Shown: positions 37,517-63,923, counted from the first letter of the stretch. The stretch is 64,000 nucleotides of DNA from a bacterium (GCA_037200965.1 JBBCGK010000001.1:1-64000), one strand, 5' to 3'. A program made the numbers and translations. Notes: generated by a model from the letters alone, not told the origin.

Positions 37517-37635
37517 AATACAGCCCAGTCTGCTTTTCTGACTTCACTGCAGACGAGAGAAAGGTCCGCCTCATCAGCGGACCTTTTATGCTATACTGAT
37601 CCCGTACCTGCCCCGCCTCGGGCGGGGACTCACCT

Positions 37636-40320
37636 ATGGCCACCAACCCAAAAAAGAAGCACGCGCAATTCGAAGGAGCTGACAAGCTCGTGGTGAAAGG
37701 CGCACGCACGCATAACCTCAAGGACATCGACGTGACGATGCCGCGCGGTGCGATGACGGTTATCACGGGCCTCTCGGGCTCCGGAAAGTCCTCGCTCGCT
37801 TTCGATACAATTTTCGCCGAAGGGCAGCGCCGCTATGTGGAAAGCCTTTCCGCCTATGCCCGCCAATTCCTCAACCAGATGCAGAAGCCGGACGTGGACG
37901 AGATAACCGGCCTCTCGCCCGCCATCTCCATAGACCAGAAGAGCCGTTCCAATAACCCGCGTTCGACGGTCGCGACCGTGACCGAAATATACGACTACCT
38001 GCGCGTCCTCTATGCCCGCGCGGGGCAGCCGTACTGCATCCATCACGACGTACCTATCTCGAAGCTTTCCAAGGAGGAGATGATCAAACTTATCCTTTCC
38101 CGCGCCGAAGCGCGCTCGGGATCCGCAAAAGAGGGCAAAGGAAGCGAAGTGCTCGGGGTCGCGGTTGATAAGCGGGCGATCACGATCTATGCGCCCGTCG
38201 TCGTCGGCCGCAAGGGCGAATACTATCAGCTCCTCTACGATCTTCTCGGGAAGGGATACGAGAAGGCGGTGATCGACGGCAAGACGCATTCGCTCCGGGA
38301 AAAGGTGGTGCTCGACCGCAATAAGCGCCACGACGTCGATGCGCTCGTCGACAGCATCTTCCTTACGGAGTTCATGCGAAACGGGACGGCAGCCCGCGAG
38401 CGCCTCTCCGAGGCCCTCGAGCTCGCGCTTAAGGAGAGCGACGGGCTCGTGAAGATAAAACATGCGGACGGGACGATAGAGACGCTTTCCTCGAAGTTCA
38501 TCTGTCCCGAGGACGGCGCGTCCTTCCCCGAGGTCGAGCCGCGCCTCTTCTCGTTCAACAGCCCGTATGGCGCATGTCCGAATTGTAACGGGCTGGGTAC
38601 GGCCTCGCTCTTCTCCGAAGAGCTTTGTCCGGTCTGCGAAGGGAAGCGGCTTCGTCCCGAAGCGCTTCGCGTCTATCTCTCGGGCAGGAAGAATCCGAAG
38701 ATAAACAACGGGCTCGGCATGAATGTCGTCGACTTCACGAACTTTTCGATACGCGAAGCCAAGGAATTCATGGACCACCTCGAGCTTTCCGAGATGCGCA
38801 TGGAGATCGCGCGGCCAATTATCCGCGAGATCACGAGCCGCCTCGAATTCATGTTGAACGTGGGGCTCGACTACCTTACTTTGAACCGCTCCGCGGCAAC
38901 GCTCTCGGGAGGGGAGGCCCAGCGCATCCGCCTGGCTTCCCAGCTTGGTACGGGGCTCGTGGGCGCGCTTTACGTGCTTGACGAACCCACCATCGGCCTT
39001 CACCAGCGAGATAACGACCGGCTTATTTCGACTCTGATATCGCTCAAGGAGCTCGGCAACACCATTCTTGTGGTCGAGCACGACGAAGATACGATCTTCG
39101 CTGCCGACTATATCGTCGATATCGGCCCGGGCGCCGGAGTCCATGGAGGCGACGTGGTCGTCTCCGGCTGGCTCGAGGACCTGCTTACGGCCAAGGACAA
39201 CCCGAGCGGTTCCCTGACCCTCGCCTATCTTCGCGGGGAGAAGGAGGTCGCCGTGCCCGAGGAGCGCCGCACGTCGGAGAAAGGCAAGCTCCAGATACGC
39301 GGGGCGACGCTCCATAATCTCGTGAACCAGAACGTGGACATCCCGCTCGGGAAGCTCGTCTGCATCACGGGAGTGTCCGGTTCCGGAAAGTCGACCTTCC
39401 TGTACGACATCCTTCATAAGAATCTTGCAGCGCGGCAGGCAAAGCGCGAAGCGAAGCTTTCGCATATTTCCTCGATGGCCGGAACCGAATATGTCGGCCG
39501 CACGGTTTTGATCGACCAGTCGCCGATCGGCCGGACGCCAAGAAGCAATCCGGCCACCTATACCGGCGCCTTCACCCATATCCGCGACCTCTTCTCGGCG
39601 ACCTCGGAAGCGAGGGCCAGGGGCTGGAAGCCCGGCCGCTTCTCTTTTAACGTCGCGGGCGGGCGCTGCGAGGCCTGCCAGGGGAACGGCATGATCGCGG
39701 TCGAGATGCACTTCCTTCCTACCGTATACGTCGTCTGCGACGTGTGCGAAGGGAAGCGCTTTATGAAAGAGACGCTTGAAGTGACATTCCGGGGAAAGAA
39801 TATCTACGAAGTCCTCCAGCTCACGGTCGAAGAAGCCGAAAAGTTCTTTAACGATATCCCCGCTATCGCCGACCGACTCGCTTCGCTCAATTCGACGGGG
39901 CTCGAATATCTCACGCTCGGCCAAAGCGCGACCACGCTCTCGGGGGGAGAAGCCCAGCGCGTGAAGATCGCCTCCGAGCTCTACCGGCCGATCACGATGA
40001 AGACCATCTATCTTCTCGACGAGCCCACCGTCGGCCTCCACTATGAAGACGTTCGCAAACTGATTGAAATACTCCAGGAACTCGTCCGGAGGGGGAATAC
40101 GGTGGTCGTGATCGAGCACAATCTCGATGTCATAAAATCCGCAGATTACATCATCGACTTCGGGCCGGAAGGAGGGACGGGAGGGGGGAAAGTGGTGGCG
40201 AAGGGGACGCCGGAGGAAGTCGCGGAGGCGAAGGGCTCGCATACCGGGCACTATCTTGCGAGGCTTCTGGAGAGGCATAGGAAGCAAAAGAAGAAAGACC
40301 AGGGTTCATTCCTAGTCTAA
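37636..40320 (+). CDS. uvrA: excinuclease ABC subunit A
   Basis: 894 aa. Two ABC ATPase modules (GLSGSGKSS and GVSGSGKST), ABC signatures (LSGGEAQR twice) and Zn-finger cysteines. The minus ORF 37630-40287 is its antisense shadow. Confidence 0.95.
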
Positions 40321-42908: not shown

Positions 42909-42984
42909 GGGCCGTTAGCTCAGTTGGTAGAGCACCTCATTTGCAATGAGGGGGTCGCAGGTTCGAATCCTGTACGGTCCACCA
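42909..42984 (+). tRNA. tRNA-Ala(TGC) with encoded CCA
   Basis: Acceptor GGGCCGT/ACGGTCC with G3-U70 (Ala identity). D-arm GCTC-AGTTGGTAGAGC. Anticodon stem CCTCA/TGAGG with loop TTTGCAA (anticodon TGC). T-arm GCAGG-TTCGAAT-CCTGT. Discriminator A then CCA. Confidence 0.9.
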
Positions 42985-44515
42985 AATCTGATTTTTCAGC
43001 AACAACCTGCTGATTTATCTCGTAAATCCAACCTAATTTCGCGGTTCCAAAACCTGTATTTTTATCGTATCTAATTCCTTCGGGAAGGACGAGTTTTTGG
43101 AACCGCTTTTGGGCGTCTACCCCGATGCTGCTCCATGTGCGGGGCAGGTCTGAAATAAACGTGGTAGCGTAGGCTATTGCTGCTTCTATGTCGAGCTTAT
43201 CGAGGTTGTTTTCTCGAATGGTGATTTGCTTTGCGGCAATCTCATTGTCGGTCTTCTCGATAATCTCCTTGCCGAAGTCCTCGCTGACCGTGCCTTTGCG
43301 AATCATCTCTGCGTACTCGAACTTCTTTTGGCGCAGCTCCTCAAGTTCGGTTTGCTGCTGCTTGATAATATCGTCGAGTAATGAGGCATTGCTGCGCCAT
43401 ACTTCTACGACAATCTCGCTGAACAGCGCGAGGAACCCTTGCTTTGGAGTGATAGTGCCAAGCCATGCAAGAAAGTCTGTGTGCATCTTTTCTTGCGAAA
43501 TGTTCTTGGCATACATGGGGCACTGCTTATTGTGGCAATGGTAGTAAGAATAAACGCCGCCGTTGCCGCGCGGATGACTGCCACTCAACCCGATACTGCA
43601 AGCGGCGCAGCGTACGTCCCTTGTGAGCGGGAAATCGGGGTGATTCTTGAGCTTCTTGATGACCTTCGGAACCTTTCCTTTGCGGATAAGCTGTACCTGG
43701 ATAAACTCCTCGGGCGTAATCATCGCCTGGTGCTTACCCTCGACTTCTTTGCCCGTGAACGGATTGAGGATGATGCCCGCATAGAACTTATTGGAAAGAA
43801 TCTCGTCAATCTTCTGCGGATAGATTTTGCGGCCTCGCAGCGTCGTGAGACCCCATTGGTTTGCGAGCTTTGCCAGCTCGACGTTGCCACTCACTTTCTT
43901 CTCAAGACAGGCACGGAAAAGCGCCTGAATTATCGGGAAGCGCTTTGGGTCTGGGTCATCGGCTTCCGTCTTTTTCATGCCGCGCCTCTTGAATTGCTTG
44001 CAGGTATAGCCAAGCGGCGACTTCCAGGGATAGATACCCTGATTTATCTTCTCGCTCATACCATCAGAGCACTGCTGCTTCCTGATAGCGTTCTCATAGT
44101 CCGCTGATGCGGCCGCAACCGTCTCGACTAGTTTCTCAATCGGCTTATTGCCGATAGGTTCGGTAACGGAAAGAAGTGTCGTCCCATAACCGGACAACTT
44201 CTTTCTTATAAAGAAATGGTCTTCTGTGCTGCGAGAAAATCTGTTGACACGAAGCACTAGGAACGCATGAATCTGGCCGTTGTGCTTGCGGCAGAACTCG
44301 ATGGCTCTCAAGAACTCTTTTCGATTATTGAGCGATAGGTCTTTTGCTGATTGCCCTTCCTCTCGGAATACTTCGACGACTTCATAGCTGTTGCGCTCGC
44401 AATACCTCCTGCACTCTGCCTCCTGAAACTCCAAGCTCGTACCGTCAACCTGCTCGTCGGATGAGACGCGCACGTAGATGATTGCTTTTCTTGTTGTGGA
44501 AGTTTTCATGCTCAT
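42920..44515 (-). CDS. large serine recombinase (integrase)
   Basis: 531 aa. N-terminal resolvase catalytic domain (AIIYVRVSSDEQ), recombinase domain, Zn-ribbon (CAACS...CHNKQC) and a coiled-coil. The last ~19 codons (GFEPATPSLQMRCSTN) are read from tRNA-Ala sequence. Confidence 0.8.
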   Translation of the reverse strand: MSMKTSTTRKAIIYVRVSSDEQVDGTSLEFQEAECRRYCERNSYEVVEVFREEGQSAKDLSLNNRKEFLRAIEFCRKHNGQIHAFLVLRVNRFSRSTEDHFFIRKKLSGYGTTLLSVTEPIGNKPIEKLVETVAAASADYENAIRKQQCSDGMSEKINQGIYPWKSPLGYTCKQFKRRGMKKTEADDPDPKRFPIIQALFRACLEKKVSGNVELAKLANQWGLTTLRGRKIYPQKIDEILSNKFYAGIILNPFTGKEVEGKHQAMITPEEFIQVQLIRKGKVPKVIKKLKNHPDFPLTRDVRCAACSIGLSGSHPRGNGGVYSYYHCHNKQCPMYAKNISQEKMHTDFLAWLGTITPKQGFLALFSEIVVEVWRSNASLLDDIIKQQQTELEELRQKKFEYAEMIRKGTVSEDFGKEIIEKTDNEIAAKQITIRENNLDKLDIEAAIAYATTFISDLPRTWSSIGVDAQKRFQKLVLPEGIRYDKNTGFGTAKLGWIYEINQQVVAEKSDLVDRTGFEPATPSLQMRCSTN

Positions 44516-44520
44516 GTGTT

Positions 44521-45417
44521 TTATGTTAGGCGGTTCACTGCATCGCGGAGACCAGCATCGCTGACGTGCAGATAGCGGCTCGTGGTCTCCAGCTTTGAGT
44601 GGCCGAGAAGATTCTTGATAGCAAAGAGGTCAACACCGTTGGTCAAAAGCGAAACACTGAACGTATGACGCAGCGAGTGAACACCTACGTGCTCCTTCTT
44701 GATACCTGCTTTCTTGATGTAGTGCTTGATAAGGTGGTATACGCTGCCGGTGCTCAATCCATTGCCAAGCCGACTGATAAAGAGATATGGCACATCGGTC
44801 TCCGGCCGCTTTTCGAGATGCTTGCGCAATACCTCGACTACCACGCAGTTGAGCGGGATAGTGCGTTCTTTATCTCCCTTACCGCGCACCTTGATGGTGG
44901 GCTGCGCCGAATCAAGACTGACGCTGGTGAGCTTGAGCCCTACCAACTCGGAGAGACGGACACCCGTATTGAGGAATGTGATGACAATGGCGAGGTCGCG
45001 TGCAAGGTAAAACGGTGTTGCGGTGCGCTTTACGGCAGCAATCAGCGCTTCGTATTCTTCTTTGGTCAAATAGCTCGGCTCCTTGTGCGGTAGCTTCGGA
45101 GTCTCAACTTCGGCGGCAGGATTTATCGTAAGAGCATCAAACTGCACCAGGTATTTGAAAAAGGATTTTATTGAGGAGAGCTTGCGGGCGCGGGTTACGG
45201 CGCTGTTCGGCTTCTTGATGCCGTTATGCGTGAGTTCCGAGAGGAAGGCGCGGACATCATCACGCGATACTTTCTTGATATTGCTTTTGCCGCGCGACTC
45301 CAAAAACTCGGTGAACTTTTCCAAGTCAAGTCGATATGCAGCCATCGTACGCACCGATGCGTTTTTGTCGCTGTGAAGGTAATTGATGAATTGTGAGATA
45401 TAATTCTGCATAATCAT
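44521..45417 (-). CDS. tyrosine recombinase (XerC/XerD-like phage integrase family)
   Basis: 298 aa. N-terminal SAM-like domain. Catalytic R...HxxR...Y (HSLRHTF, LGHSKLETTSRYLH). Confidence 0.85.
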   Translation of the reverse strand: MIMQNYISQFINYLHSDKNASVRTMAAYRLDLEKFTEFLESRGKSNIKKVSRDDVRAFLSELTHNGIKKPNSAVTRARKLSSIKSFFKYLVQFDALTINPAAEVETPKLPHKEPSYLTKEEYEALIAAVKRTATPFYLARDLAIVITFLNTGVRLSELVGLKLTSVSLDSAQPTIKVRGKGDKERTIPLNCVVVEVLRKHLEKRPETDVPYLFISRLGNGLSTGSVYHLIKHYIKKAGIKKEHVGVHSLRHTFSVSLLTNGVDLFAIKNLLGHSKLETTSRYLHVSDAGLRDAVNRLT

Positions 45418-47767: not shown

Positions 47768-47968
47768 ATGGCTTCAAAGGACAAAAACTACCTGACGATT
47801 CAAGAAGTCGCCAAAAAATTGGAGGAGCGGCACTTCGACATCACCGAGCGAACGGTGTATCGCTATGTCCAAAAAGGAAAGATACGGGCAATCAAAATCG
47901 GCGGCTGGCGTATCGAGAAAAAAGATTTTGAAAAGTTCCTCGAAGAAAGCTCAAACACCAAGAAATAA
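47768..47968 (+). CDS. excisionase-family HTH DNA-binding protein (candidate controller of the R-M operon)
   Basis: ATG at 47768 (MASKDKNYLTIQEVAKKLE...RTVYRYVQKGKIRAIKIGGWRI). Stop is 4 nt before the mod start. Confidence 0.55.
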   Translation: MASKDKNYLTIQEVAKKLEERHFDITERTVYRYVQKGKIRAIKIGGWRIEKKDFEKFLEESSNTKK

Positions 47969-47972: not shown

Positions 47973-49769
47973 ATGAAGAACCAGCCAACAAAAGTAAATC
48001 TCGCCTCCGCAAATCTCTCCGAGGAGAAGCTGTTTGAGTTGCGGCGTATCCTTCCCGAAGCGTTCAGCGAAAACAAAATTGACTGGGAGAAGCTCCGCAC
48101 GGTTCTTGGCGACGCGGTGGATGCTCATATCGAGAAGTTCGGCTTTACCTGGGCGGGCAAGGGCAACGCCATCAAGAATGTTTTGATACCGAGCAAGGCC
48201 ACGCTCAACCCCGCTCCCGACGAGAGTGTGATGTTCGACGAGAGCCAGAATCTTTTTATCGAGGGCGACAACCTCGAAGTCTTGAAGCTTTTGCAAAAGG
48301 CGTACTTTGAGAAGGTGAAGATGATTTATATAGACCCGCCGTACAACACCGGCGGCGACTTCGTGTACAAGGACAACTTTACCGCACCGCTTGATAACTA
48401 CCTCCATCAGACCGGCCAGAAGAACGGCAACGGCGAGCATCTCACGACAAACAAGGAAACCAACGGCCGCTTCCACAGCGATTGGCTCTCAATGATGTAT
48501 CCGCGTCTCAAGCTCGCGTGGAATCTTTTGCGCGACGACGGCGTTATCTTCATCAGCATTGATGATAACGAGGTGCATCATCTCCGCATATTGCTAAATG
48601 AAGTGTTTGGCGAAGAAAACTTTATTGGTGAGTTTATCGTCGTACGTGCAGAAGGGGGTGGTTTAGCACATCAGTATGTGAAAGGACATGATTATCTGCT
48701 TGCATACGCAAAGTCTATTACAGACTTTGAACCACTCCGTCGCCCGAAAGATATTAGAGGCAAAATTATTGAGAAAGACGGCAAGGAATACTGGATAGAA
48801 GAAGACTGGCTCCGCCGAGAGTTCGGTAAGTACGGCACTCTCCTATACGAAGACATTGAGGAAGTGAAGGGGGCTAACAAGAAAGCGGAAATTGACGCTG
48901 GTTTGCAGAGCGGAGAGTATCAACTGATAAAGAAAAATGGCGGCCATATTGTTGGTCGACTTCGCCTAATTGAAGAAGATGGCTCCAAGTTCTACAGCAT
49001 CCTCAAACATCTTTCTGCGAGGGGAAACGATGATTTGCAGGAATTGGAAATGGGCAAACTCTTTGACTTTCCAAAGCCGGTATCTTTGCTGCGCGAACTC
49101 ATTTTGGGAGCCACGTTCTTTAGTAAGAATGACGGCGATATTATTCTCGACTTTTTCGCTGGCTCTGGTACCACGGCTCATGCTGTAATGGCACAAAATG
49201 CGGAAGATGGAGGCAATCGAAAGTGGATTGCTGTTCAACTACCGGAGAAGACCGAGAGCGATAGCGAAGCGTTCAAAGCCGGATACAAAACTATTGCCGA
49301 CCTTACTAAAGAACGTATACGCCGCGCCGCAAAGAAGCTAGAAAATACTGATGGCTTCAAAATCTTCAAGCTCGCAGCATCAAACTACCCCGAGAACGCT
49401 TTTGAGTTCGACCCAGATAAAACAGAAGACGAGAACAAAGCCGCCTTCGAGGACTACTTGAAGCACGCAAAGCGCGCCAAGCTTATTGACGACCTAGACG
49501 AGACGAGCGTCATCTACGAAAACATCGTCAAGGAAGGATTCTCGCTCAACTCCAAGATTCAGGAAGGCGTGCCAGGAAACAACAAGGTCTACACCATCAC
49601 CGACGGCGACCGGCAGTTTTCTATCTGCCTCGACCGTTCGATTGATGACACGACCGTAAAGAACATCACGGAGTGGGCTAAAGGAGCGACCTTTATCTGC
49701 TTCGATAATGCGCTCTCTGACAGCCAGAAAGCAAACCTCGGCCTCCACGTGGAGCTGAAAACGATATAA
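47973..49769 (+). CDS. mod: Type III restriction-modification system methyltransferase (Mod, N6-adenine)
   Basis: ATG at 47973 (MKNQPTKVNL). SAM motif and catalytic DPPY (IYIDPPYNTGGDF). Central variable (target-recognition) region. Motif I (FFAGSGTTAHA) after it, as in Mod enzymes. Confidence 0.85.
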   Translation: MKNQPTKVNLASANLSEEKLFELRRILPEAFSENKIDWEKLRTVLGDAVDAHIEKFGFTWAGKGNAIKNVLIPSKATLNPAPDESVMFDESQNLFIEGDNLEVLKLLQKAYFEKVKMIYIDPPYNTGGDFVYKDNFTAPLDNYLHQTGQKNGNGEHLTTNKETNGRFHSDWLSMMYPRLKLAWNLLRDDGVIFISIDDNEVHHLRILLNEVFGEENFIGEFIVVRAEGGGLAHQYVKGHDYLLAYAKSITDFEPLRRPKDIRGKIIEKDGKEYWIEEDWLRREFGKYGTLLYEDIEEVKGANKKAEIDAGLQSGEYQLIKKNGGHIVGRLRLIEEDGSKFYSILKHLSARGNDDLQELEMGKLFDFPKPVSLLRELILGATFFSKNDGDIILDFFAGSGTTAHAVMAQNAEDGGNRKWIAVQLPEKTESDSEAFKAGYKTIADLTKERIRRAAKKLENTDGFKIFKLAASNYPENAFEFDPDKTEDENKAAFEDYLKHAKRAKLIDDLDETSVIYENIVKEGFSLNSKIQEGVPGNNKVYTITDGDRQFSICLDRSIDDTTVKNITEWAKGATFICFDNALSDSQKANLGLHVELKTI

Positions 49770-49771: not shown

Positions 49772-52402
49772 ATGAAGTTCAAGTTTGACGCAAACCAAGA
49801 TTTTCAAATAAACGCAGTCAACGCCATCGTTGGCGTCTTTGAAGGTCAGCCGAAGCGTCAAAGTGTGGTAGTAAATGTGCCCGCACTTTCCGTTTCCGGC
49901 TCATTGCCGCTCCAAACTACATACGGCATCTATCCGAACGAGCTGACGCTTTCCGACGAGGAGGTGTTTGCCAACGTCTGGAAGATTCAAGAGCAAAACA
50001 AAATCGGCAATGGCGGCACGGTTGAGGAGTACGACTTTTCTATCGAGATGGAGACGGGTACGGGTAAGACGTATGTGTACCTTCGTACCGTCTTTGAACT
50101 CAACAAGCAATACGGATGGAAGAAGTTTATCGTTCTCGTGCCGTCCGTCGCCATCCGCGAGGGCGTCATCAAGACGCTCCAAATCACCAAAGACCACTTC
50201 GCCGAGCTGTACGACAACGTGCCGTACCGCTTCTACGAGTACCAGTCCAAGAACATCTCGCAGGTGAAGCGCTTTGCGGAATCCAGCAACCTGGAGATTA
50301 TGGTGATGACGGTAGGTGCGTTCAACAAGGACGCGAACGTGCTCTATGCCGCCCGCGACCAGATGCAGGGCGAGCAGCCTATCAGCTACATCCAGCGCAG
50401 CAACCCCGTCCTCATCCTCGACGAGCCGCAGAATATGGAAGGTGAAGCGACGAAGGAGGCGCTCAAGAACTTCAACGCGCTTGCACGCCTGCGATACTCC
50501 GCGACGCATCGCAATCCGTACAACCTCATGTACCAGCTCACGCCGTTCGATGCGTATCAGCTCGGCCTCGTAAAGAAGATTGAGGTGTATTCCGTTACGG
50601 ATGACGACACCGGCATCTCGCGCCCGTCGCTCAACCTCATCTCCGTTGAATCCGGCAAGGCGCTCAAGGCAAAGTTAGAGGCCATCGTGAAAGATGCCGA
50701 CGGCGCATTGAAGCGCAAGAAGCTCACCGTCAAACAGAACGACGACCTCGCGCAGAAGACCGGCAACGACGTATACGCCGGCTATATCGTGGACGAGCTT
50801 GACGCCGATGCGCCAGACCTCGGGCAGATTGGTAGGATTCGCTTTCGCAACAACGTGGAGATTCGCCAGGGTGAAGGCGTAGCAAACAACAACGAGCAAG
50901 TGATGCGCGAGCAGATTGAGCAGACCATCCGCCGCCACTTCGAGAAACGCAACCAGCTCCGCGATATGGGCATCAAGGTGCTCTCCCTCTTTTTCATAGA
51001 CAAGGTAGACAACTACGTTCAATCAGACGGGTTTATCCGCTCTGCGTTCATAGCCGAGTTCAATCGCCTCAAGAAAGACTATGGCGCTGACGGCATGGAC
51101 GTGGATACCGTCCACAAGGGATATTTCGCCAAGCGCGGCGAGGAGTATTTGGAGCGAGAGTCCAGCATCGCCGAGAACCAGGAAGCATACGAGCTGATTA
51201 TGAAGGACAAGGAGCGCCTGCTTTCCTTCGATGAGCCGACGGAGTTCATCTTCTCGCACTCCGCACTCAAGGAAGGATGGGACAACCCAAACATTTTCAA
51301 TATCTGCACCCTGCGCGAGACCGTTTCAGTCATCCGCAAGCGCCAGGAGATTGGCCGAGGTATGCGCCTCTGCGTCAATCAGGACGGAGAGCGTATTTTC
51401 TTGCGCAGCGTCAACCTGCTCTCCGTGATTGCAAACGAGAGCTATACGGAATACGTCTCATCGCTCCAGGGCGAATACGAGGAGGACGGTATCTACAAGT
51501 CTGCGCCGTTGCCGAACAATGCCAAGCGAAAGACCACGGTGAAGCTCAAGAAAGATTTTGATAAGGACACGGACTTTGCTGGTATCTGGGAACGCATCTC
51601 GAAGAAGACCCGCTATGTCGTGCAGGTTGATAGCGAGCGCGTCATCGAAGCGTCCGCAAAGCAGATTGCGAAGCTCCATCTCGCAAAGCCCAAGATGCGC
51701 GTCGAGCGCGCGGGCGTGAACATCGCGGCCGAAGGCATCACCGCAAACATCGTAGGCACCCGTGCCGAGGATTTGAGCCAGACCAAACGCACCATTGACC
51801 CTATCGAACTCATCAAAAACGAGACCAAGCTGACGCGCCACACGGTCGCGGAGATTTTGGCGAAAGCGGACAATACCGACTCCTTCCTCAAGAATCCCGA
51901 ACGCTTCTGCTTCGAGGCAACGCGCATCATCAAGGCCGAGCTGGTGAAGGATTACGTTTCCCAGATTCGCTATGAGGTACTGCCGGAGCAGTATGACCTC
52001 AAGCAGTTCGAGGACATCCCGAGCTACAAGGACGCGACGCACAAGGTGAACAACTCCATCTACGACGCCATCGTGTATGACTCCGACGTGGAGAAGAACT
52101 TTGCCGTCGCCCTCGATGCCGACGAGCGCGTGAAGCTCTTTATCAAGATGCCCAACTGGTTCAAGGTGAACACGCCTATCGGCGGCTACAATCCCGACTG
52201 GGCAATCGTAACGGCCAAGCGAGACCTCCAGGGCAACGAGGAGAAGGAGCGCGTGTATTTCGTGATTGAGACGAAGGGCGACATCTCCAACCTGCGCGAG
52301 AGCGAGGGACAAAAAATTGCTTCCGCGAAGAAGCACTTTGAAGTCATCGAGGTGAACTACAAGGAGGTCGAGAACTACGGGCAATTTGCTGAACAACTAT
52401 GA
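49772..52402 (+). CDS. res: Type III restriction enzyme Res subunit (SF2 helicase + endonuclease)
   Basis: 876 aa. Helicase motif I (ETGTGKTYVY), DEAH-like LILDEPQNM, C-terminal PD-(D/E)xK-like region. Starts 2 nt after mod. Confidence 0.85.
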   Translation: MKFKFDANQDFQINAVNAIVGVFEGQPKRQSVVVNVPALSVSGSLPLQTTYGIYPNELTLSDEEVFANVWKIQEQNKIGNGGTVEEYDFSIEMETGTGKTYVYLRTVFELNKQYGWKKFIVLVPSVAIREGVIKTLQITKDHFAELYDNVPYRFYEYQSKNISQVKRFAESSNLEIMVMTVGAFNKDANVLYAARDQMQGEQPISYIQRSNPVLILDEPQNMEGEATKEALKNFNALARLRYSATHRNPYNLMYQLTPFDAYQLGLVKKIEVYSVTDDDTGISRPSLNLISVESGKALKAKLEAIVKDADGALKRKKLTVKQNDDLAQKTGNDVYAGYIVDELDADAPDLGQIGRIRFRNNVEIRQGEGVANNNEQVMREQIEQTIRRHFEKRNQLRDMGIKVLSLFFIDKVDNYVQSDGFIRSAFIAEFNRLKKDYGADGMDVDTVHKGYFAKRGEEYLERESSIAENQEAYELIMKDKERLLSFDEPTEFIFSHSALKEGWDNPNIFNICTLRETVSVIRKRQEIGRGMRLCVNQDGERIFLRSVNLLSVIANESYTEYVSSLQGEYEEDGIYKSAPLPNNAKRKTTVKLKKDFDKDTDFAGIWERISKKTRYVVQVDSERVIEASAKQIAKLHLAKPKMRVERAGVNIAAEGITANIVGTRAEDLSQTKRTIDPIELIKNETKLTRHTVAEILAKADNTDSFLKNPERFCFEATRIIKAELVKDYVSQIRYEVLPEQYDLKQFEDIPSYKDATHKVNNSIYDAIVYDSDVEKNFAVALDADERVKLFIKMPNWFKVNTPIGGYNPDWAIVTAKRDLQGNEEKERVYFVIETKGDISNLRESEGQKIASAKKHFEVIEVNYKEVENYGQFAEQL

Positions 52403-55400
52403 ACTTCTATGGACTCTTTATCGGGATAGACAGATATGCCTCTCCAAGTATCAACTGGTTGAGTTGTGCAAAGCGTGATGCAGTAGCACTTCATGCGCTC
52501 TTTACTGACACACTTGGCGGCAGCACGAAACTACTTACAGATGAACAAGCCACGCGCCCTACCATTGAAGCGGAGTTTGCAGAACTGGCTAAATGCAAAG
52601 AGGATGACGTGGTAGTCATAACCTTCTCTGGACACGGTACTACTACGCACGAGTTAGTTGTCCATGATGCGGACAGAAGTAATTTGCCAGGCATGTGCAT
52701 CCCGCTTTCAGTTGTAAGCGAGTGGGTTGCAAAAATACCAGCAAAAAAGTTGCTGTTTATCTTGGATTGCTGCTTTTCTGGCGGCATGGGTGCGAAAGCT
52801 CTCCAGGTTGATGTTGTCTCACGTGATATAACTTCAGCCGATGATTTGCTCAAACAACTTTCTGGAGATGGACGGTTGATTTTGACCGCATCGCTTGCCA
52901 CAGAACCTGCTTGGGAGAACCAAAAGCTCGGCCACGGCTTTCTCACATATCATCTGCTGACAGCAATGCAGGGTACCGAAGAAGTGAAAAAGGCAGGTAA
53001 GATTACTGCGTACCGCTTACTTGAATACGTAACGGAAAGAGTGGTAGATGACGCAAAAAAGATTGGTAAAGAGCAACATCCAACTCTCCGCGGCACGATG
53101 GACGGCTCGTTGACGTTTCCTGTATTTACTCCTGGCACGCTATACGCCGCCGCGTTTCCAGAGAGAACAAAAGCAAAAGTTAGTGCAGATATTCAATCGC
53201 TTGAACCCTATGGATTCCCCGAGACCATACTAAAAGCATGGGCGGGTGCGATACCATCGCTCAACCAGTTGCAGATAGACGCTATCAACGACTTCGGGCT
53301 ACTTGATAGTGAGCACTTGGTTGTTTCCGCACCAACATCCTCTGGTAAGACAATGGTTGGTGAACTTGCTGCCATCAGTGGCGCACTGAAACGTCGGAGA
53401 GCACTTTTCTTATTTCCTTTGAAGGCGCTTGTAAATGACAAGCTGCGCCATTTCAATAGCACATACGGTGCGTTTGGTCTGAAAACCATCAAAGCAACTG
53501 GCGAGAGTACAAGCGATGACATGCTCCCTTTGATGCGTGGCCAGTATGATATTTGCTTGATGACGTATGAGAAGTTTTCTGCGCTCGTTCTAGGCTACCC
53601 GCATATCCTTGAGCAAATCGGAACCATTGTAGTTGATGAGGTGCAGATGATTGCCGATGAATCACGTGGAGTGAATCTTGAGTTTATCCTTACACTATTG
53701 AGGATGCGACGTAGAGAAGGAGCTGAACCGCAGCTCATTGCTCTTTCTGCCGTAATTGGTGATACCAACGGACTGGAGCGATGGCTTGGCGGCCGACTGC
53801 TGCGCAGAACAGAGCGTCCCGTGCCACTTGATGAAGGAATTATCAAAGCCGACGGCAGCTTCCGCTATATCGAGTCTGACACTGGAACGGAGAAGACCGA
53901 TACGTCTTATATTATCCCTGAATCACGCAAAGGTTCGAGCCAAGACTTGATTATCCCTCTAGTGCGAAAATTGGTCGGTGAAGGTAAAAGCGTGATTGTA
54001 TTCCGTGAGACACGGGGTGAAGCGCGCGGCTGCGCCCTCTACCTCGCAAGCTCTCTTGGATTGCCGGCCGCACAAGTTGCCCTCGATACATTGCCGAATA
54101 GCGACCCGTCCATCTCATCCAACAAGTTGCGAGAGGCACTTGGAGGCGGTATCGCTTTTCATATATCGGATTTGGATACCGAGGAGCGTCTTGTTGTAGA
54201 GGAACAATTTAGAGCCAGACCTACAGCGCTCAAAGTGATAGCCGCGACCACGACTCTTGCAATGGGAGTGAACACCCCTGCGGAGGCGGTTATCATTGCC
54301 GGTCTCACACATCCAGGAGACCATCCGTATTCAGTTGCAGAGTACAAAAACATCATCGGTCGTGCTGGACGACTTGGCTTCTCGCAGCGTGGCACTTCCT
54401 ACGTTGTCGCAATGAATGGTAGCGATGAACACCACATTTGGAATAGCTACGTTCTTGCATCCCCAGAAGACCTGAACTCCCGCTTTTTGGCAGACCATAC
54501 AGACCCGCGCACATTGATTGTGAGAGTTTTGATAGCTGCTGGTCGTGCGGGTTTGCCAGCACAGCAGATAGTTGAGTTCTTGGAGGAGAGCTTTGGCGTG
54601 TTCCAGCAGAAAGCAATAAACGCTAGCTGGAAATGGGATGAGCAACAGCTTCTGCAAGCTCTCGCTGACTTGAATGCGCACGGATTGGTTGAGAAGGATA
54701 AGGATGATGTATACCACCTCACAGAACTCGGAAAGCTGGCGGGTGTTTCTGGCGTTGAGGTGGAGTCAGTCATTCGAGCTGTGAACGCTTTAAGCGGTCT
54801 GCCGACCACAGACATCAACGACCCTGCACTCATTACGCTCTCGCAAGCAACCGCGGAGCTTGACCAGGTATTATTCCCGATGAATAAGAAAAGCACGCAA
54901 AAAGAACCGCAGGCATGGGCTACTGAAATACGAAATCAAAATGTCCCTACTCAAATAACACAGGAACTTGGGCGCAACACCTCGGATACAACGCAACAAA
55001 CATTGCGCGCTAAAAAAGCAGTAGCAAGTCTACTTTGGATAACTGACCGGCCGCTGAATGAAGTAGAGACAACTATGACACAGTTTGGCGGTGGGCTAGA
55101 TGGTGCCGCTGGTGCAATTCGTGGTGTTGCTGCACGAACGTGTGATGTGCTGCCTACGATTGCTCGCATTGCCGAACTGCTGAATCCTGGTTTTGATTTG
55201 AGCAATCGAGTATCACGACTGTTGATACGGCTTGAGATTGGCGTACCGGCCGCTGGTGTTGAACTCGGCTCTCGCATCGGCAGAATACTTACTCGTGGTG
55301 ATTATCTCAACCTTCTCAAAGCAGGCATCTCTACTGCTGAACAATTTGAGACAGCAGACGAGAAAGTCCTTTTGTCGTGCCTCGGAGACAGCACCGATAA

Positions 55401-55491
55401 ACTTGAACAAGCAAAGCTCGCATTAGAAAACACCTCACAGGAAGAACCTGCTCCGATGATGCCACCGATTTTACCAGCCTATGAAGGATAA
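52399..55491 (+). CDS. fusion protein: N-terminal caspase-like (peptidase C14/CHAT-like) domain + Ski2/Hel308/Lhr-like SF2 helicase + C-terminal helical region
   Basis: 1030 aa. Caspase-like dyad: GIDRY, catalytic His in FSGHG, catalytic Cys in LDCCFSGG. Helicase motifs I APTSSGKT, II VVDEVQMI, III SAV, VI IIGRAGRLG. Overlaps the res stop by 4 nt (ATGA). Confidence 0.7.
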   Translation: MNFYGLFIGIDRYASPSINWLSCAKRDAVALHALFTDTLGGSTKLLTDEQATRPTIEAEFAELAKCKEDDVVVITFSGHGTTTHELVVHDADRSNLPGMCIPLSVVSEWVAKIPAKKLLFILDCCFSGGMGAKALQVDVVSRDITSADDLLKQLSGDGRLILTASLATEPAWENQKLGHGFLTYHLLTAMQGTEEVKKAGKITAYRLLEYVTERVVDDAKKIGKEQHPTLRGTMDGSLTFPVFTPGTLYAAAFPERTKAKVSADIQSLEPYGFPETILKAWAGAIPSLNQLQIDAINDFGLLDSEHLVVSAPTSSGKTMVGELAAISGALKRRRALFLFPLKALVNDKLRHFNSTYGAFGLKTIKATGESTSDDMLPLMRGQYDICLMTYEKFSALVLGYPHILEQIGTIVVDEVQMIADESRGVNLEFILTLLRMRRREGAEPQLIALSAVIGDTNGLERWLGGRLLRRTERPVPLDEGIIKADGSFRYIESDTGTEKTDTSYIIPESRKGSSQDLIIPLVRKLVGEGKSVIVFRETRGEARGCALYLASSLGLPAAQVALDTLPNSDPSISSNKLREALGGGIAFHISDLDTEERLVVEEQFRARPTALKVIAATTTLAMGVNTPAEAVIIAGLTHPGDHPYSVAEYKNIIGRAGRLGFSQRGTSYVVAMNGSDEHHIWNSYVLASPEDLNSRFLADHTDPRTLIVRVLIAAGRAGLPAQQIVEFLEESFGVFQQKAINASWKWDEQQLLQALADLNAHGLVEKDKDDVYHLTELGKLAGVSGVEVESVIRAVNALSGLPTTDINDPALITLSQATAELDQVLFPMNKKSTQKEPQAWATEIRNQNVPTQITQELGRNTSDTTQQTLRAKKAVASLLWITDRPLNEVETTMTQFGGGLDGAAGAIRGVAARTCDVLPTIARIAELLNPGFDLSNRVSRLLIRLEIGVPAAGVELGSRIGRILTRGDYLNLLKAGISTAEQFETADEKVLLSCLGDSTDKLEQAKLALENTSQEEPAPMMPPILPAYEG

Positions 55492-56320
55492 AAATATGAT
55501 GAAAAAACGAACAGCAGTAATACTCATCGTCGTCGCTATCGTGGCAACATACGCTGTCATCATGTGGGCGTATTACGGAGACCCTTCATGGTCTAGCAGC
55601 AGCGACACCGCAAGCAGCACCGAGATACCGGCAGACTGCAACGTGCTCGCGTTCAACCTCAACGGAGAGATAGCAACATACCTGCCGCAAGATAGTATCA
55701 GTGAGACCGATTCCGTCTCATCGGCCGATATTCTCGATGGTCTCAAGCTGGCGAAGGAGAACCCGCAAATAAAGGCGGTGCTGCTTTCGGTTGATTCCGG
55801 CGGCGGGAGCGTCGTAGCCGGTGAGGAGATAGCCAACGGCTTCAAGGCGCTCGGCAAGCCCTCTGCGGCGGTTATCCGCGACCTGGGAGCTTCTGCCGCA
55901 TACTGGGCGGCTACCGGCGCAGGCAGGATATTTGCCTCGAAGGTGTCGGATGTGGGTAGTATCGGCATCACCGCCTCATACCTCGACAATACCGTTGCGA
56001 ACGCAAAGGACGGTCTCACGCCCGTGGCAATCGTCTCTGCGCCGTATAAGAACGAGGGCGACCCCGACTTTCCGCTCACGGCAGCAGGCAAGGCGGACAT
56101 ACTCGCATCTATCAAGAAAGACCATGAGGTTTTCGTGGACGAAGTTGCAGCAAACCGGAAGCTCGACCGCAGCAAGGTAGCAGCGCTTGCAGATGGCCGA
56201 ACGTATGTTGGCACCGACGCCGTGGACAACGGACTGATTGACGGCATCGGCAGCATTCCCGAAGCGACCGACTATCTTACTCAACAGATTGGTGAGTCTG
56301 CGCAGGTGTGCTGGTACTAA
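55481..56320 (+). CDS. SppA/S49-family serine peptidase (signal-peptide-peptidase-like), membrane-anchored
   Basis: 279 aa. N-terminal TM. S49 core with Ser in GASAAYW and downstream Lys. Start overlaps the upstream gene's end by 11 nt. Confidence 0.65.
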   Translation: MKDKNMMKKRTAVILIVVAIVATYAVIMWAYYGDPSWSSSSDTASSTEIPADCNVLAFNLNGEIATYLPQDSISETDSVSSADILDGLKLAKENPQIKAVLLSVDSGGGSVVAGEEIANGFKALGKPSAAVIRDLGASAAYWAATGAGRIFASKVSDVGSIGITASYLDNTVANAKDGLTPVAIVSAPYKNEGDPDFPLTAAGKADILASIKKDHEVFVDEVAANRKLDRSKVAALADGRTYVGTDAVDNGLIDGIGSIPEATDYLTQQIGESAQVCWY

Positions 56321-56972
56321 CCGACGCGCGCAGCATCGTCATATCTTTCTCGCTCATTTTTCCGGCCATCGCCCGATTGAGAATGTTCATCATAAAAGTT
56401 GCCGTCTCGCGCTTGTCGGCGTTTGATTTGATATTCAGAGACTCCTTGCTGTGCGCAGCGCGCATCACATAGTTGAACACGTTTAGCACGTAGTTGCGGC
56501 GCTTCACGATGATGTCATCGTCGTAGCTGCTTTCATCGTCCTGGTCGCGCTTGAGAATATCCATCGCATCGTTGAGCAGCTCGCCTGCAAGGGTGCTCGC
56601 GCCCATCTCTAGCGTCTGCGCATCCGGCACGATGGCGGCATTTTGCTCATCCCGCACCTTGATGATTTGCCGCAGCTCCCGCTGCTCCTGCTTGTAGCCC
56701 TGCTCGGCGAGCAGCTCCGCGTCCCACTTCTTGCGCCACAGGCGATATTGCTTCTCCCAGGGAAAGAAGGTAAACGGGGCGATGGACTTGTTGAAATCGT
56801 TGATGATACGGATGGCGCTGCGGTCTGGTTCCTTGCGGCGCTCGGCCAGGTAGAAGGCGCGGAAGGACGGGAGAAGCTCCCGAAGCTCACCGACCCTCTG
56901 GTATTTGCCGTCAAAGCCCTCGTAGAAGGAGAAGATGGGCTTGGTATCGTTTTGTGGTGTTGATGTGTCCAT
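56277..56972 (-). CDS. hypothetical protein
   Basis: Start taken at the internal ATG 56972 (MDTSTPQND...) to avoid overlapping the recombinase remnant. Acidic helical protein, no family. Confidence 0.4.
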   Translation of the reverse strand: MDTSTPQNDTKPIFSFYEGFDGKYQRVGELRELLPSFRAFYLAERRKEPDRSAIRIINDFNKSIAPFTFFPWEKQYRLWRKKWDAELLAEQGYKQEQRELRQIIKVRDEQNAAIVPDAQTLEMGASTLAGELLNDAMDILKRDQDDESSYDDDIIVKRRNYVLNVFNYVMRAAHSKESLNIKSNADKRETATFMMNILNRAMAGKMSEKDMTMLRASVSTSTPAQTHQSVE

Positions 56973-56988
56973 AGGGGCTATAATGAGG

Positions 56989-58554
56989 CTATATCGCAGC
57001 GTGCTGGGGCTGGAGAATGGCTTGCCACTCCTGCAATCCTTCAAGGACTTGGTTCCAGTTCGCGCGGATGTAGTCCACATCGTCGGAGTTGGTGGTAGCT
57101 AACTCCTCAAACAGCCTGGTTTTACTTAGCTTATTTCCGGTTCTATAACCCTCATTTTTGGCATACTCCAATTTGCGCTCAAAGAGGAAGAAAAAGAGCC
57201 GGTGCTGACCATGCACATCGAACAAATCCCAAGTAGATACGGGGCTTTTTAGCATTCCCATACTCTTATCAAGGGCGGTTCTATAAGGTATTCCTAAGTC
57301 CTTGCTGATGAGGGTCGTGCCCTCCATTTTCTCAAGCTCGCGTGCGCTGTCTTCTATCTGAGCTTCATACGTGCGCACTACAGCCTCAGAATTGGCCTTA
57401 CGCGCCATCTCTGACAGCTCCTTGAGCTTCTTCTTCAACTCCTCCTTTCGCTGCTCCTGAAGGTAATCCTGCCATTCAAATATTCTTGACTCCTGTGCCC
57501 ATATTTTATCGAACACGCTAGAAGCAACACCAGTAACGGCAGGCTTGAGTCGGTTGCGTGCGAGCACCTTCTTGAAATCATCCTCGACATCCTTCTTCCG
57601 AAGGGTCTTGAAGTAGAGCTCACACTTCCTGTTCTGGCAGAAGTAGTATTCGTACTTCTTCTTGCTGCGGCTCGTTGATGGAGCTGCTGAAAGATGGCCA
57701 TCACATAGGGCGCAGGTAATGAGGCCACGCAGTGGGAATTGGTCTGAGGTGTCTTTGCGAGGCTTGGCCTTTGCTTCGTCCTTTCCAAGCCGTGCCTGAA
57801 TGCGAAGGAAGGTGTCAGGTTTAATAAGACCTGTGTGCTGTCCGTCTCTTCGAGACACGCCCCAGGGGAGGTATTCAATGAATCCTGCAAAGAAAGGGTC
57901 TTCAAGCATTCCTGAAACATGGTCTAAGCATCGAACAGGCTCCTTACCAGCCCACATACCTCGCTCCACCATAAAGTTGGCGACATCAATCTTTCTTGGC
58001 AAATTGCCGCTCGCGAATCCTTCAAGAGCAGGCTTGATTACCTCGTAGCCAAGCTTATTCGGCTGCGCAACCTTTCCACGGCCAAGAATGAACACCATGT
58101 CATACCCGCGCTTCTTACTGAATGGCCAGTAGCCTGCGAGCAGCCGAGCTTCCATCTTGTTGATTACCTGTTCCGCGTTCTGCTCACGGTCGAGTTCAGC
58201 CTGCGCTGCGAGTACACGCTCAACGAATCTTCCCGAAGGGGAGTCCTCGAAGTTGAAGTTAAGGCAGAGCGGAATAATGTCGCACTCAGTGAACGCTTCC
58301 ATCAGCGCCATATGAAACTTCAGGTCGCGTGCAAAGCGTTTGAGGTCGTCGAAGACAACAACGAACTTCTTATCGCGGTTTGCACGAACATACGCCAATA
58401 ACTCTCGCATGCTTGGACGGCGCATGAAGTCGCCACCTCCTGTGTACGTGTCTATGAAGGACCGGTCATAGGGTATACCAAGCTCTGTAAGTCGAATCTT
58501 GCATCGCGTCTCCTGACTTGATTGGCCACTGCCATTCAGCTCCTGGCTCGAGTT
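56989..58554 (-). pseudogene. large serine recombinase remnant lacking the N-terminal catalytic region
   Basis: ORF 56989-58425 begins mid-resolvase domain (…RPSMRELLAYVRANRDKKFVVVFDDLKRFARDL). The frame continues upstream to 58554 (…IDTYTGGDF) with no YxRVS catalytic-serine motif, then hits a stop and an AT-rich junction. C-terminal recombinase and Zn-ribbon regions are intact. Confidence 0.6.
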
Positions 58555-60800: not shown

Positions 60801-60871
60801 TCGGGCCGCCGGGAATCGAACCCGGTCTACATCCACCCCATGGACGCGTACTACCGGTATACTACGGCCCG
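60801..60871 (-). tRNA. tRNA-Pro(GGG)
   Basis: Minus-strand cloverleaf. Acceptor CGGGCCG/CGGCCCG. D-arm GTAT-ACCGGTA-GTAC. Anticodon stem CGTCC/GGATG with loop ATGGGGT (anticodon GGG). T-arm CCGGG-TTCGATT-CCCGG. Discriminator A, no CCA. Confidence 0.8.
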
Positions 60872-60896
60872 TTTCGTTCGCTGGTCCTGTGTCCTG

Positions 60897-60967
60897 TCGG
60901 GCCGCCGGGAATCGAACCCGGTCTTTACGCACCCGAAGCGCACGTACTACCGGTATACTACGGCCCG
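60897..60967 (-). tRNA. tRNA-Pro(CGG)
   Basis: Same acceptor, D and T arms as the neighbouring tRNA-Pro. Anticodon stem TGCGC/GCGTA with loop TTCGGGT (anticodon CGG). Confidence 0.8.
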
Positions 60968-60984
60968 ACACGACACACGACCTG

Positions 60985-61057
60985 TGGACCCTAGGGAATT
61001 CGAATCCCTGACCTCGTCAATGCGAATGACGCGCTCTACCAGCTGAGCTAAGGGCCC
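60985..61057 (-). tRNA. tRNA-Ala(CGC)
   Basis: Acceptor GGGCCCT/AGGGTCC with G3-U70. D-arm GCTC-AGCTGGTAGAGC. Anticodon stem CGTCA/TGACG with loop TTCGCAT (anticodon CGC). T-arm AGGGA-TTCGAAT-TCCCT. Confidence 0.8.
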
Positions 61058-61086
61058 GTTCGGAAGAATATAGCACGAGGAACCGG

Positions 61087-61299
61087 CTATTTGGAGTCTT
61101 CTTCCCGCTTCCTGAAGAGGCCATAGAGGCGCTCATAGTATGCGAGGGCTTTCCCTTGGAGAAGAAGGCGCGCGCCGACCATCTCGGCGCCGACGAACAC
61201 GAGCCAGGAGCCGGGCGTGAACGGGGTTACGAGCGCGAGAAGGCCGATGACGATCAGCGCTACCCCGATGATTTTCTTCCATGGCAGGTTCATAGGCAT
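61087..61299 (-). CDS. small membrane protein (hypothetical)
   Basis: 70 aa with two TM helices. Confidence 0.35.
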   Translation of the reverse strand: MPMNLPWKKIIGVALIVIGLLALVTPFTPGSWLVFVGAEMVGARLLLQGKALAYYERLYGLFRKREEDSK

Positions 61300-61348
61300 T
61301 CATCATAGCCTTTTCGAGCTCCCTTTGATATCGTGAGCGGGCAATCGA

Positions 61349-61422
61349 GGGCGATTAGCTCAGTTGGTTAGAGCGTCCGCCTCACACGCGGAAGGTCACA
61401 AGTTCGAGTCTTGTATCGCCCA
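61349..61422 (+). tRNA. tRNA-Val(CAC)
   Basis: Acceptor GGGCGAT/ATCGCCC. D-arm GCTC-AGTTGGTTAGAGC. Anticodon stem TCCGC/GCGGA with loop CTCACAC (anticodon CAC). T-arm ACAAG-TTCGAGT-CTTGT. Discriminator A, no CCA. Confidence 0.8.
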
Positions 61423-61476
61423 CTTTCAACTAAGGCCAGTCAGCATACTGCCCTCATGCGCAGCTACTCGAGGAAG

Positions 61477-63738: not shown

Positions 63739-63811
63739 GGGCCCGTAGCTCACTTGGTAGAGCGCCGCGATGGCATTGCGGAGGTAAGGGGTTCGATCCC
63801 CCTCGGGTCCA
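63739..63811 (+). tRNA. tRNA-Ala(GGC)
   Basis: Acceptor GGGCCCG/CGGGTCC with G3-U70. D-arm GCTC-ACTTGGTAGAGC. Anticodon stem CCGCG/TGCGG with loop ATGGCAT (anticodon GGC). T-arm AGGGG-TTCGATC-CCCCT. Discriminator A, no CCA. Confidence 0.8.
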
Positions 63812-63923
63812 CAAAATTAGGCATCGCTTTACAAGGTCTACCATCTGTCGTACGTTTATCCTGGATTCATTCGAGTCCGCGCATCCTTGCGGATGCCTTG
63901 ACACTATAAAGGGATAATAAGCG

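Follow-up and report, generated by a model that had tools for sequence, protein, structure and literature searches.

A single bacterial protein joining a caspase-type protease to a Hel308-type helicase, and its probable role in defence

The gene and its product

We analyzed a gene that encodes a caspase-type protease and a helicase in one protein (below: the caspase-helicase), located in a 64,000-nucleotide stretch of bacterial DNA (GCA_037200965.1, JBBCGK010000001.1:1-64000; "the window" refers to this whole stretch). An intact open reading frame (ORF) runs on the plus strand from 52399 to 55491 and comprises 1030 codons followed by TAA. An earlier reading of the same DNA, made by a model without database searches (the sequence-only reading), had proposed a fusion of a caspase-like domain to a superfamily 2 (SF2) helicase, and the profile searches bear this out: Pfam Peptidase_C14, DEAD and Helicase_C all match within the one ORF. 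Peptidase_C14 covers residues 6-232 (E 1.6e-13, 51.3 bits against a gathering cut-off of 21.4) and spans positions 5-225 of the 233 in the profile, whereas DEAD (residues 291-454, E 9.3e-23) and Helicase_C (residues 576-660, E 2e-08), both likewise above their gathering scores, account for the helicase part. Since all Pfam scores exceed the gathering thresholds, the combined motif pattern is not a chance occurrence. That a single protein joins a caspase-type protease to a complete Hel308-type helicase is, in our view, practically certain. The gene is organized as follows:

52399-55491, plus strand: caspase-helicase gene, 1030 amino acids (ORF, Pfam, AlphaFold2 model)
52399-53148, plus strand: residues 1-250, C14 caspase/metacaspase-like protease domain
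53149-53268, plus strand: residues 251-290, helical linker into the helicase Q-motif region (secondary structure of the model)
53269-54498, plus strand: residues 291-700, the two RecA-like domains of the SF2 core (Pfam DEAD, Helicase_C)
54499-55437, plus strand: residues 701-1013, winged-helix, ratchet and helix-hairpin-helix-like domains (PRK02362, 2zj2, Foldseek)
55438-55488, plus strand: residues 1014-1030, disordered C-terminal tail ending in PILPxYE (predicted local distance difference test, pLDDT, below 50)

Each motif named in the sequence-only reading could be verified in the translation: GIDRY at residues 9-13, FSGHG at 76-80 and LDCCFSGG at 122-129 in the protease domain, and APTSSGKT at 311-318, DEVQ at 413-416, SAV at 450-452 and IIGRAGRLG at 652-660 in the helicase. 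An AlphaFold2 model built on 97 homologues has a mean pLDDT of 87.2 and a predicted template modelling score (pTM) of 0.81; the only stretches of low confidence are residues 128-131, 138-144 and 1014-1030. The nearest relatives of residues 1-285 align through approximately residue 282. In the tail, P1023 and Y1028 are invariant among 97 close homologues. The PILPxYE motif itself is specific to the clade, and in remoter members the C-terminus is often acidic and rich in proline (e.g. LPPPVD); the tail peptide may have a docking or autoinhibitory role. An identical protein is recorded in an unclassified bacterial metagenome-assembled genome (MAG; GCA_037975565.1, on a contig of 960 kb) and on two other contigs.

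The protease domain

The possibility that the N-terminal domain is a generic Rossmann domain was looked at, and what we find is a caspase fold: the domain has the caspase-hemoglobinase fold of peptidase family C14 (clan CD). The best caspase model in NCBIfam is of the EACC1-associated type (residues 6-216, E 2.8e-25, 89 bits against a cut-off of 140). A CHAT identity was tried and rejected, as the nearest match is not a CHAT-type profile or fold but C14 caspase/metacaspase proper.

The catalytic residues are His79 (nucleotides 52633-52635) and Cys125 (52771-52773). In the HMMER alignment they fall on the catalytic residues of AtMC4 (HYSGHG, DSCHSGG) and of TbMCA2, Cys125 aligning with Cys139 of the former and Cys213 of the latter. 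The predicted nucleophile is the second cysteine of the DCC motif: Cys125 is invariant, whereas Cys124 is replaced by serine, threonine or alanine in related caspases. Both D123 (the aspartate of DxC) and D27, the putative aspartates of an acidic S1 pocket, are invariant in the homologues checked, and the metacaspase-type D-x-C-x-S-G motif suggests cleavage after basic residues. Directly behind the catalytic cysteine, residues 128-144 (nucleotides 52780-52830) form a low-confidence disordered loop, in which most family members carry an arginine at the position of R142. The linker between p20 and p10 is the site where caspases and metacaspases are processed. The R142 loop appears to sit at that very position and is a candidate site for self- or trans-processing. 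Taken together, residues 1-250 are predicted to be a catalytically competent C14 cysteine protease with an intact His79/Cys125 active site.

The helicase part

All SF2 motifs that were located are intact: Q (Q292), I (GKT, 316-318), II (DEVQ, 413-416), III (SAV, 450-452) and VI (R655/R658). The sequence-only reading had suspected a winged-helix or ratchet region as in Hel308 in the C-terminal ~330 residues, which is confirmed by three comparisons, together with an additional helix-hairpin-helix-like domain. First, NCBIfam PRK02362 aligns over residues 284-1001. Second, a sequence profile of the family matches Hjm (2zj2) in the PDB over residues 292-999 (E 7.6e-70), against E 1.1e-29 for the Hachiman helicase HamB (8vx9); in bits, the archaeal Hel308/Hjm type scores 239 and HamB 106. 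Third, Foldseek aligns the model with whole Hel308/Hjm chains (9b15, 2zj8, 2va8, 2p6r) over ~750-770 columns, with target TM-scores of 0.83-0.87 and E-values of ~1e-41 to 1e-40. The next matches are the helicase domain of human DNA polymerase theta and, behind it, Brr2 (Hel308 and polymerase theta together range from 1e-41 to 1e-36).

The complete domain set of Hel308/Ski2-like helicases (two RecA domains, winged helix, ratchet and helix-hairpin-helix-like domain) is present, and residues ~270-1010 are predicted from sequence and model to be a complete, catalytically competent Hel308-type SF2 helicase with intact motifs. True orthology to Hel308 was considered and rejected: the NCBIfam equivalogs NF040935 and PRK02362 are not reached (217 against 1200 bits and 272 against 887 bits, respectively), so the helicase can be called Hel308-like only.

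Conservation and distribution of the family

Conservation of the active sites was assessed in sets of 25, 97 and 120 close homologues. When 5.8 billion proteins were searched, the best 120 matches listed came from many phyla and were 59-89% identical; 115 of these 120 are 1000-1049 amino acids long and 118 carry C14, DEAD and Helicase_C together. The His79/Cys125 dyad, whose loss in close homologues would have spoken against a protease, is retained in every homologue examined, and all 120 keep the dyad as well as helicase motifs Q, I, II, III and VI. The pattern extends to remoter relatives. A HMMER search with residues 1-285 against 1.84 billion cluster representatives yielded 111 matches below 1e-30; among the matches listed there are 39 distinct clusters at 50% identity, of ~1000-1057 amino acids plus one of 1199, which retain His79, Asp123, Cys125 and the same five helicase motifs at a caspase-domain identity down to ~32-40%. 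As both active sites are conserved to ~32% identity in the caspase domain, both have evidently been under purifying selection across the deep family.

The sequence-only reading did not recognize this architecture, yet it is not rare: it occurs in at least 217 species-level genomes, on 17 plasmids and in dozens of 50%-identity clusters. The genome figure derives from a scan of one genome per species (at least 217 loci among 185,579 species) and is a lower bound, two strict peptide patterns having been used. The best 80 of these loci show 49-79% identity and belong to the candidate phyla radiation (CPR), Elusimicrobiota, Omnitrophota, Clostridia, Myxococcota, Planctomycetota, Bacteroidota, Cyanobacteria, Alphaproteobacteria, Verrucomicrobiota, Actinomycetota and Chloroflexota. 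Horizontal transfer is the sole explanation for such high identity across so many phyla. The copies on the 17 plasmids are full-length and all annotated as 'DEAD/DEAH box helicase'; public annotation thus knows the helicase alone and the protease half has been missed. No full-length copy was found in 50,697 phage genomes, and among 2.9 million viral contigs there is a full-length copy at one locus. Bacteria and their plasmids, not phages, are the carriers of the family.

Given a helicase that lies nearer to archaeal Hel308/Hjm and polymerase theta than to HamB (by the bit scores and target TM-scores above), it might be argued that the protein is a housekeeping enzyme of repair or replication restart, i.e. 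a bacterial equivalent of Hel308 in which the caspase is regulatory or involved in processing, unrelated to defence. The class II ribonucleotide reductase that adjoins the gene in 3-4 rhizobial groups would fit such a role. The very patchy distribution (at least 217 of 185,579 species genomes) does not, nor do the horizontal transfer indicated by high identity across phyla, the copies on plasmids, integrative islands and defence islands, or the Hel308 equivalog cut-offs in NCBIfam, which are far from reached. We consider a housekeeping role quite improbable, and a defence protein the probable identity of the caspase-helicase.

The island and the operon

The gene lies in a low-GC stretch of ~43-60 kb in the window (GC ~0.50 against ~0.59 outside), which is bounded by two serine recombinases and one tyrosine integrase. 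Within it, the caspase-helicase is the fourth gene of a plus-strand operon in the order HTH_17, Mod, Res, caspase-helicase, S49 peptidase. Both components of a Type III restriction-modification (R-M) system, the methyltransferase Mod and the helicase-endonuclease Res, are thus encoded upstream. The remaining features of the island are:

42920-44515, minus strand: serine recombinase, left end of the island (Pfam label)
44521-45417, minus strand: tyrosine integrase, left end of the island (Pfam label; homologues in loci L088 and L089)
47768-47968, plus strand: HTH_17 (AlpA/Xis/MerR-like) small DNA-binding protein, first gene of the cassette (Pfam PF12728, E 3.2e-14)
47973-49769, plus strand: Type III R-M methyltransferase Mod (PADLOC MTase_III, E 2.3e-164; Pfam N6_N4_Mtase)
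49772-52402, plus strand: Type III R-M Res (PADLOC REase_III, E 2.5e-240; Pfam ResIII and RE_endonuc)
55496-56320, plus strand: membrane-anchored S49/SppA-type serine peptidase (Pfam Peptidase_S49, E 2.2e-28; NCBIfam SppA_dom)
56277-57080, minus strand: conserved cassette gene, convergent with the operon (homologues 66-69% identical at the same position in L004 and L088)
56989-58425, minus strand: second serine recombinase, right end of the island (Resolvase and Zn_ribbon_recom labels)

The TGA stop of Res and the ATG of the caspase-helicase overlap as ATGA, by which the caspase-helicase is predicted to be translationally coupled to Res. The S49 peptidase starts 4 nucleotides past the caspase-helicase stop. 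A hydrophobic transmembrane helix at its N-terminus suggests that the catalytic domain lies outside the cytoplasm; in PHROG the peptidase is best matched by a family of head-maturation proteases. The product of the convergent gene at 56277-57080 has no match in Pfam, PADLOC or PHROG. Scans of the operon for promoters and terminators gave nothing above the shuffled background, and no att-like direct repeats were found bounding the island.

Several further observations concern the window at large. At its 3' end, the ORF of the left recombinase runs into a predicted tRNA-Ala (42909-42984), and a tRNA cluster lies to the right of the island at 60801-61423 (Pro-GGG, Pro-CGG, Ala-CGC and Val-CAC), with Ala-GGC further on at 63739-63812. 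The two tRNA-Pro genes are tandem copies, 87% identical. Long ORFs oppose each other on the two strands at 37630-40320 and 23786-26776 (885 amino acids on the minus strand against 894 on the plus strand, and 796 against 928); these are likely the usual shadow ORFs of high-GC coding DNA, with one real gene per pair.

The cassette in the closest relatives

An integrative cassette consisting of a minus-strand integrase and, further on, HTH_17, Mod, Res, caspase-helicase and a variable last gene was found in three places: the window, L089 and L088 (the same as L004). Compared with the window, Res is 77-81% and the caspase-helicase 76-79% identical in L088/L004 and L089. The last slot holds the S49 peptidase in the window and an S49 peptidase 59% identical to it in L089; in L088/L004 it holds an unrelated 229-residue protein whose N-terminus resembles a zinc ribbon and which carries an RNHVVH (HEPN-like) motif. 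The S49 peptidase was considered as an obligatory partner or substrate and rejected, being absent from all 80 genome loci, present elsewhere only in L089 and replaced in L088/L004.

The HTH_17 gene holds the same position in L084, L088 and L089. At L084 (3233-11105) two Eco57I-like Type IIG genes stand behind it in place of Mod and Res, while the caspase-helicase is 90% identical to that of L089 (3428-11108) despite the different R-M modules. The R-M module has thus been exchanged ahead of an almost unchanged caspase-helicase. Because of this swap, and because Mod and Res are restricted to the closest relatives, the link with R-M is a feature of the clade; it is neither family-wide nor dependent on Type III.

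These comparisons bear on the proposal that the protein is an accessory subunit of Type III R-M, which would work only together with Mod and Res (for example in proteolytic control of Res levels or processing of restriction products). The ATGA coupling to Res and the same gene order in the window, L088/L004 and L089 would be in line with this. Nonetheless, the caspase-helicase of L084 stands behind an unrelated Eco57I-like R-M module, most family members have no adjacent R-M at all, and Type III R-M normally needs just Mod and Res. An accessory subunit is very improbable indeed.

Another alternative is a DNA-tracking protease. Here the helicase would carry the protease along DNA to bound proteins and act locally, rather than by global killing; possible targets include end-protecting or terminal proteins of phages, replication proteins, DNA-protein crosslinks and stalled R-M complexes. 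In its favour, the protease is covalently fused to a DNA-binding motor and lies beside it in a model predicted with confidence as a single body (pTM 0.81); the helicase motifs are all conserved, and R-M enzymes that remain on DNA are encoded in tight coupling with the gene. On the other hand, we know of no precedent for such a DNA-tracking protease among caspase-fold enzymes, the R-M linkage is clade-specific, and the known bacterial defence caspases are broad or effector-activating proteases. We regard DNA tracking as unlikely, and retain a defence protein with a sensing helicase as the preferred explanation of the gene.

Neighbourhoods across the family

Neighbouring genes were compared over 56 non-redundant locus groups. 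A tblastn search for a conserved partner, using Mod, Res, S49, HTH and flanking genes of the window against 83 loci, found them in the closest relatives only. All-against-all clustering of flanking ORFs, including small plus-strand ORFs, revealed no family in more than 5 of the 56 groups; the seemingly top clusters represent one Bradyrhizobiaceae element sampled 17 times. In a Pfam scan of the neighbours (112 upstream, 130 downstream) the commonest families belong to defence and mobile elements: XRE-HTH with Peptidase_M78 (4), integrases (4), ThiF (3), further C14 caspases (3), CHAT (3), ThsB_TIR (3), ResIII (3), N6_Mtase (2), resolvases (2), and Fic, Schlafen AlbA_2, restriction endonucleases and AbiEii. 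E2/ubiquitin-like genes and transposases are found as well. ThsB_TIR or TIR_2 genes lie within three genes of the caspase-helicase in a few loci, and individual loci have a HEPN-nucleotidyltransferase, ApeA or an SF1 helicase as neighbours. Among single cases, L090 carries a Schlafen-type helicase and Mrr, L087 is a resolvase island, and L006 has a PGAP1-like hydrolase upstream. At L085 the caspase-helicase is solitary, flanked by two housekeeping genes, for a sigma factor and a phosphoribosyltransferase. With this solitary copy and no shared neighbour, the caspase-helicase looks self-sufficient.

The XRE-type HTH and Peptidase_M78 (ImmA/IrrE-like) genes are located directly upstream in 4 of the 56 groups (e.g. 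L003:8638-9956 and L070:8644-9974). Such pairs of XRE and M78-type proteins are damage-responsive switches on mobile elements.

A recurrent arrangement places SAVED-CHAT or CHAT, a protein of ~400-500 amino acids and the caspase-helicase in a row, as in L010=L011 (L010:5158-11794), L012:6783-13096 and L022:675-7396. The middle protein, which is also present in L008:13198-14370 and L068:8769-9986, has no match in Pfam, PADLOC or PHROG. L012 further contains a divergent WYL regulator. The L010 and L011 loci overlap: the compared ORFs are equal in length, spacing and phmmer score, even though the MAGs are assigned to different phyla (an actinobacterium and Gemmatimonadetes) and stem from sister samples. 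Their filing under two phyla is probably a binning artefact.

This arrangement raises the main alternative, in which the protein is the executioner of a protease cascade: the caspase would be a zymogen cleaved by a partner protease, and the helicase would target or tether the protease or be the effector itself. A precedent is PCaspase, an abortive-infection effector that SAVED-CHAT activates by cleavage (bioRxiv 10.1101/2023.06.23.546230). Besides the operons just described, CHAT genes lie at most three genes downstream in 3 further groups, and the disordered loop with its conserved arginine past the catalytic cysteine resembles a p20/p10 processing site. The association is, however, limited to about 4-7 of the 56 groups, and no cyclase genes were found beside the SAVED-CHAT-bearing loci. 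Moreover, CHAT and SAVED genes are missing from the window and its clade, some copies are solitary, and the universally conserved ATPase motifs of the helicase favour an active motor role. A cascade is therefore rather unlikely as the general mode of action, and we return to a caspase-helicase that acts in defence as a single chain.

Comparison with known systems

Helicase domains were counted in 12 of 671 bacterial metacaspases in one survey (PMC3501461), and DEAD with Helicase_C in 3 cyanobacterial orthocaspases in another (PMC8283722), each as a count only. The architecture is already catalogued and, in the literature searched, functionally uncharacterized; as a system it is absent from PADLOC v2.

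The closest resemblance is to Hachiman. Its helicase HamB, Ski2-like and akin to Hel308 in function, detects DNA damage and then releases the nuclease HamA (PMC12278908). As in Hachiman, we find a Ski2/Hel308-like SF2 helicase in a defence context, with HamB models as the best PADLOC matches (E 1.6e-34); the logic we propose, in which the helicase would sense DNA and release an effector, is the one shown for Hachiman, and a protease-bearing variant (HamMAB) exists. Membership was nevertheless rejected, as there is no HamA and HamB matches the helicase core alone: no HamA/DUF1837 gene lies beside the caspase-helicase and no such label occurs anywhere on the island. Where HamB has an N-terminal helical bundle that binds HamA, the caspase domain is found here (the PADLOC matches to HamB cover, for example, residues 292-491 and 303-665). 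The effector is present in cis and is a cysteine protease, whereas that of Hachiman is a nuclease, and the protease of HamMAB is trypsin-like, fused to HamA, and activates a metallo-beta-lactamase (MBL) nuclease. In comparison to HamB, the present helicase has the full winged-helix, ratchet and helix-hairpin-helix C-terminus and is closer to archaeal Hel308.

With archaeal Hel308/Hjm and polymerase theta the helicase shares the five-domain architecture and all SF2 motifs. It differs in that identity is 20-25% only and that the present protein is bacterial, mobile and equipped with an N-terminal caspase domain; Hel308 itself has been stated to be absent from bacteria (PMC12278908).

On the protease side, Type IV Thoeris and PCaspase likewise use a C14-fold His/Cys protease as defence effector, with broad or arginine-specific cleavage leading to abortive infection; the Thoeris enzyme is arginine-specific, cleaves EF-Tu and other proteins, and acts as an abortive-infection effector. 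Their activation depends on a small molecule that a TIR protein produces or on cleavage by SAVED-CHAT, and none of these proteases has been described as fused to a helicase. TIR, SAVED and CHAT genes are all absent from the window. Caspase-like proteases fused to STAND/Avs proteins offer another parallel, with caspase and sensor module at the N-terminus of a large NTPase and a protease that licenses death effectors, but the sensor here would be an SF2 helicase and not a STAND NTPase. An effector gene of the EACC1, MBL, Pepco or alpha/beta-hydrolase type was found neither in the window nor as a conserved neighbour of the family. Protease-nuclease pairs occur in Hachiman and AVAST, and a caspase-nuclease system, canu, has been described (PMC12799240); CanA of canu (CanABC) differs in having a C-terminal immunoglobulin-like fold and a partner nuclease.

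Proposed mechanism

By analogy with these systems, we propose a single-chain protein directed against mobile elements, most likely phages, in which the helicase would sense DNA and the protease would be the effector; we give this reading an even chance. The sequence-only reading had suggested that the helicase might be a nucleic-acid sensor that activates the protease. Of that suggestion both domain assignments stand, and the sensing role is plausible, as it fits the defence and mobile contexts and the Hachiman precedent.

In the proposed sequence of events, the helicase module would load on abnormal DNA arising during infection, such as 3' single-stranded tails, forks, or damaged or restricted ends. 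ATP-driven translocation or DNA-induced dimerization would then free or assemble the caspase domain. The protease would cleave after basic residues, possibly processing itself first at the conserved arginine of the loop behind the catalytic cysteine. Cleavage of host and/or phage proteins might finally lead to growth arrest or aborted infection, as shown for the Type IV Thoeris caspase and PCaspase. In the clade of the window, translational coupling to R-M makes the DNA ends produced by restriction an attractive trigger, and one may speculate that they set off a second line of defence. For the specific sensor-effector mechanism our confidence is balanced at best, falling at or slightly short of an even chance. 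The narrower proposal of a DNA-activated caspase, in which the Hel308-type motor reads abnormal DNA (3' tails, forks, restriction products) and directly switches on the protease, is tentative and on balance doubtful.

Several points weigh against this interpretation. The roles of sensor and effector are assigned by analogy, and they might be reversed, or both parts might act jointly on DNA-bound proteins. The basic P1 specificity is deduced from motifs alone, and D27, the second putative S1 aspartate, is placed by HMMER one residue off register relative to CCND of TbMCA2. In 4 of the 56 locus groups a (SAVED-)CHAT protease and a ~400-residue protein are encoded beside the caspase-helicase, pointing to an upstream protease as the activator of at least some members. 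Among the genome loci only L004 has Mod and Res beside the gene, so that the linkage to R-M is confined to the closest clade. PADLOC has no model for the whole protein, its matches covering either the helicase core (HamB, PDC-M23B, SngC) or the caspase domain alone, and in the literature searched caspase-helicase fusions have been counted without any functional study.

Significance

Caspase-fold proteases and Hel308/Ski2-like sensor helicases are both established parts of immunity, hitherto found in separate systems. If the proposed reading is correct, their union would be a new sensor-effector combination in the defence repertoire and a compact system for the control of a caspase by nucleic acid. 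It would also mean that bacteria, reported to lack such an enzyme, do harbour a complete Hel308-type helicase that circulates within a mobile gene. A DNA-activated caspase, if true, would tie nucleic-acid sensing to a caspase without adaptors, second messengers or upstream proteases. In the clade of the window it would form a backstop behind interchangeable R-M systems, firing when restriction is under way or failing, and the exchanged R-M modules, with a caspase-helicase that has hardly changed behind them, amount to a natural experiment on how first and second lines of defence cooperate.

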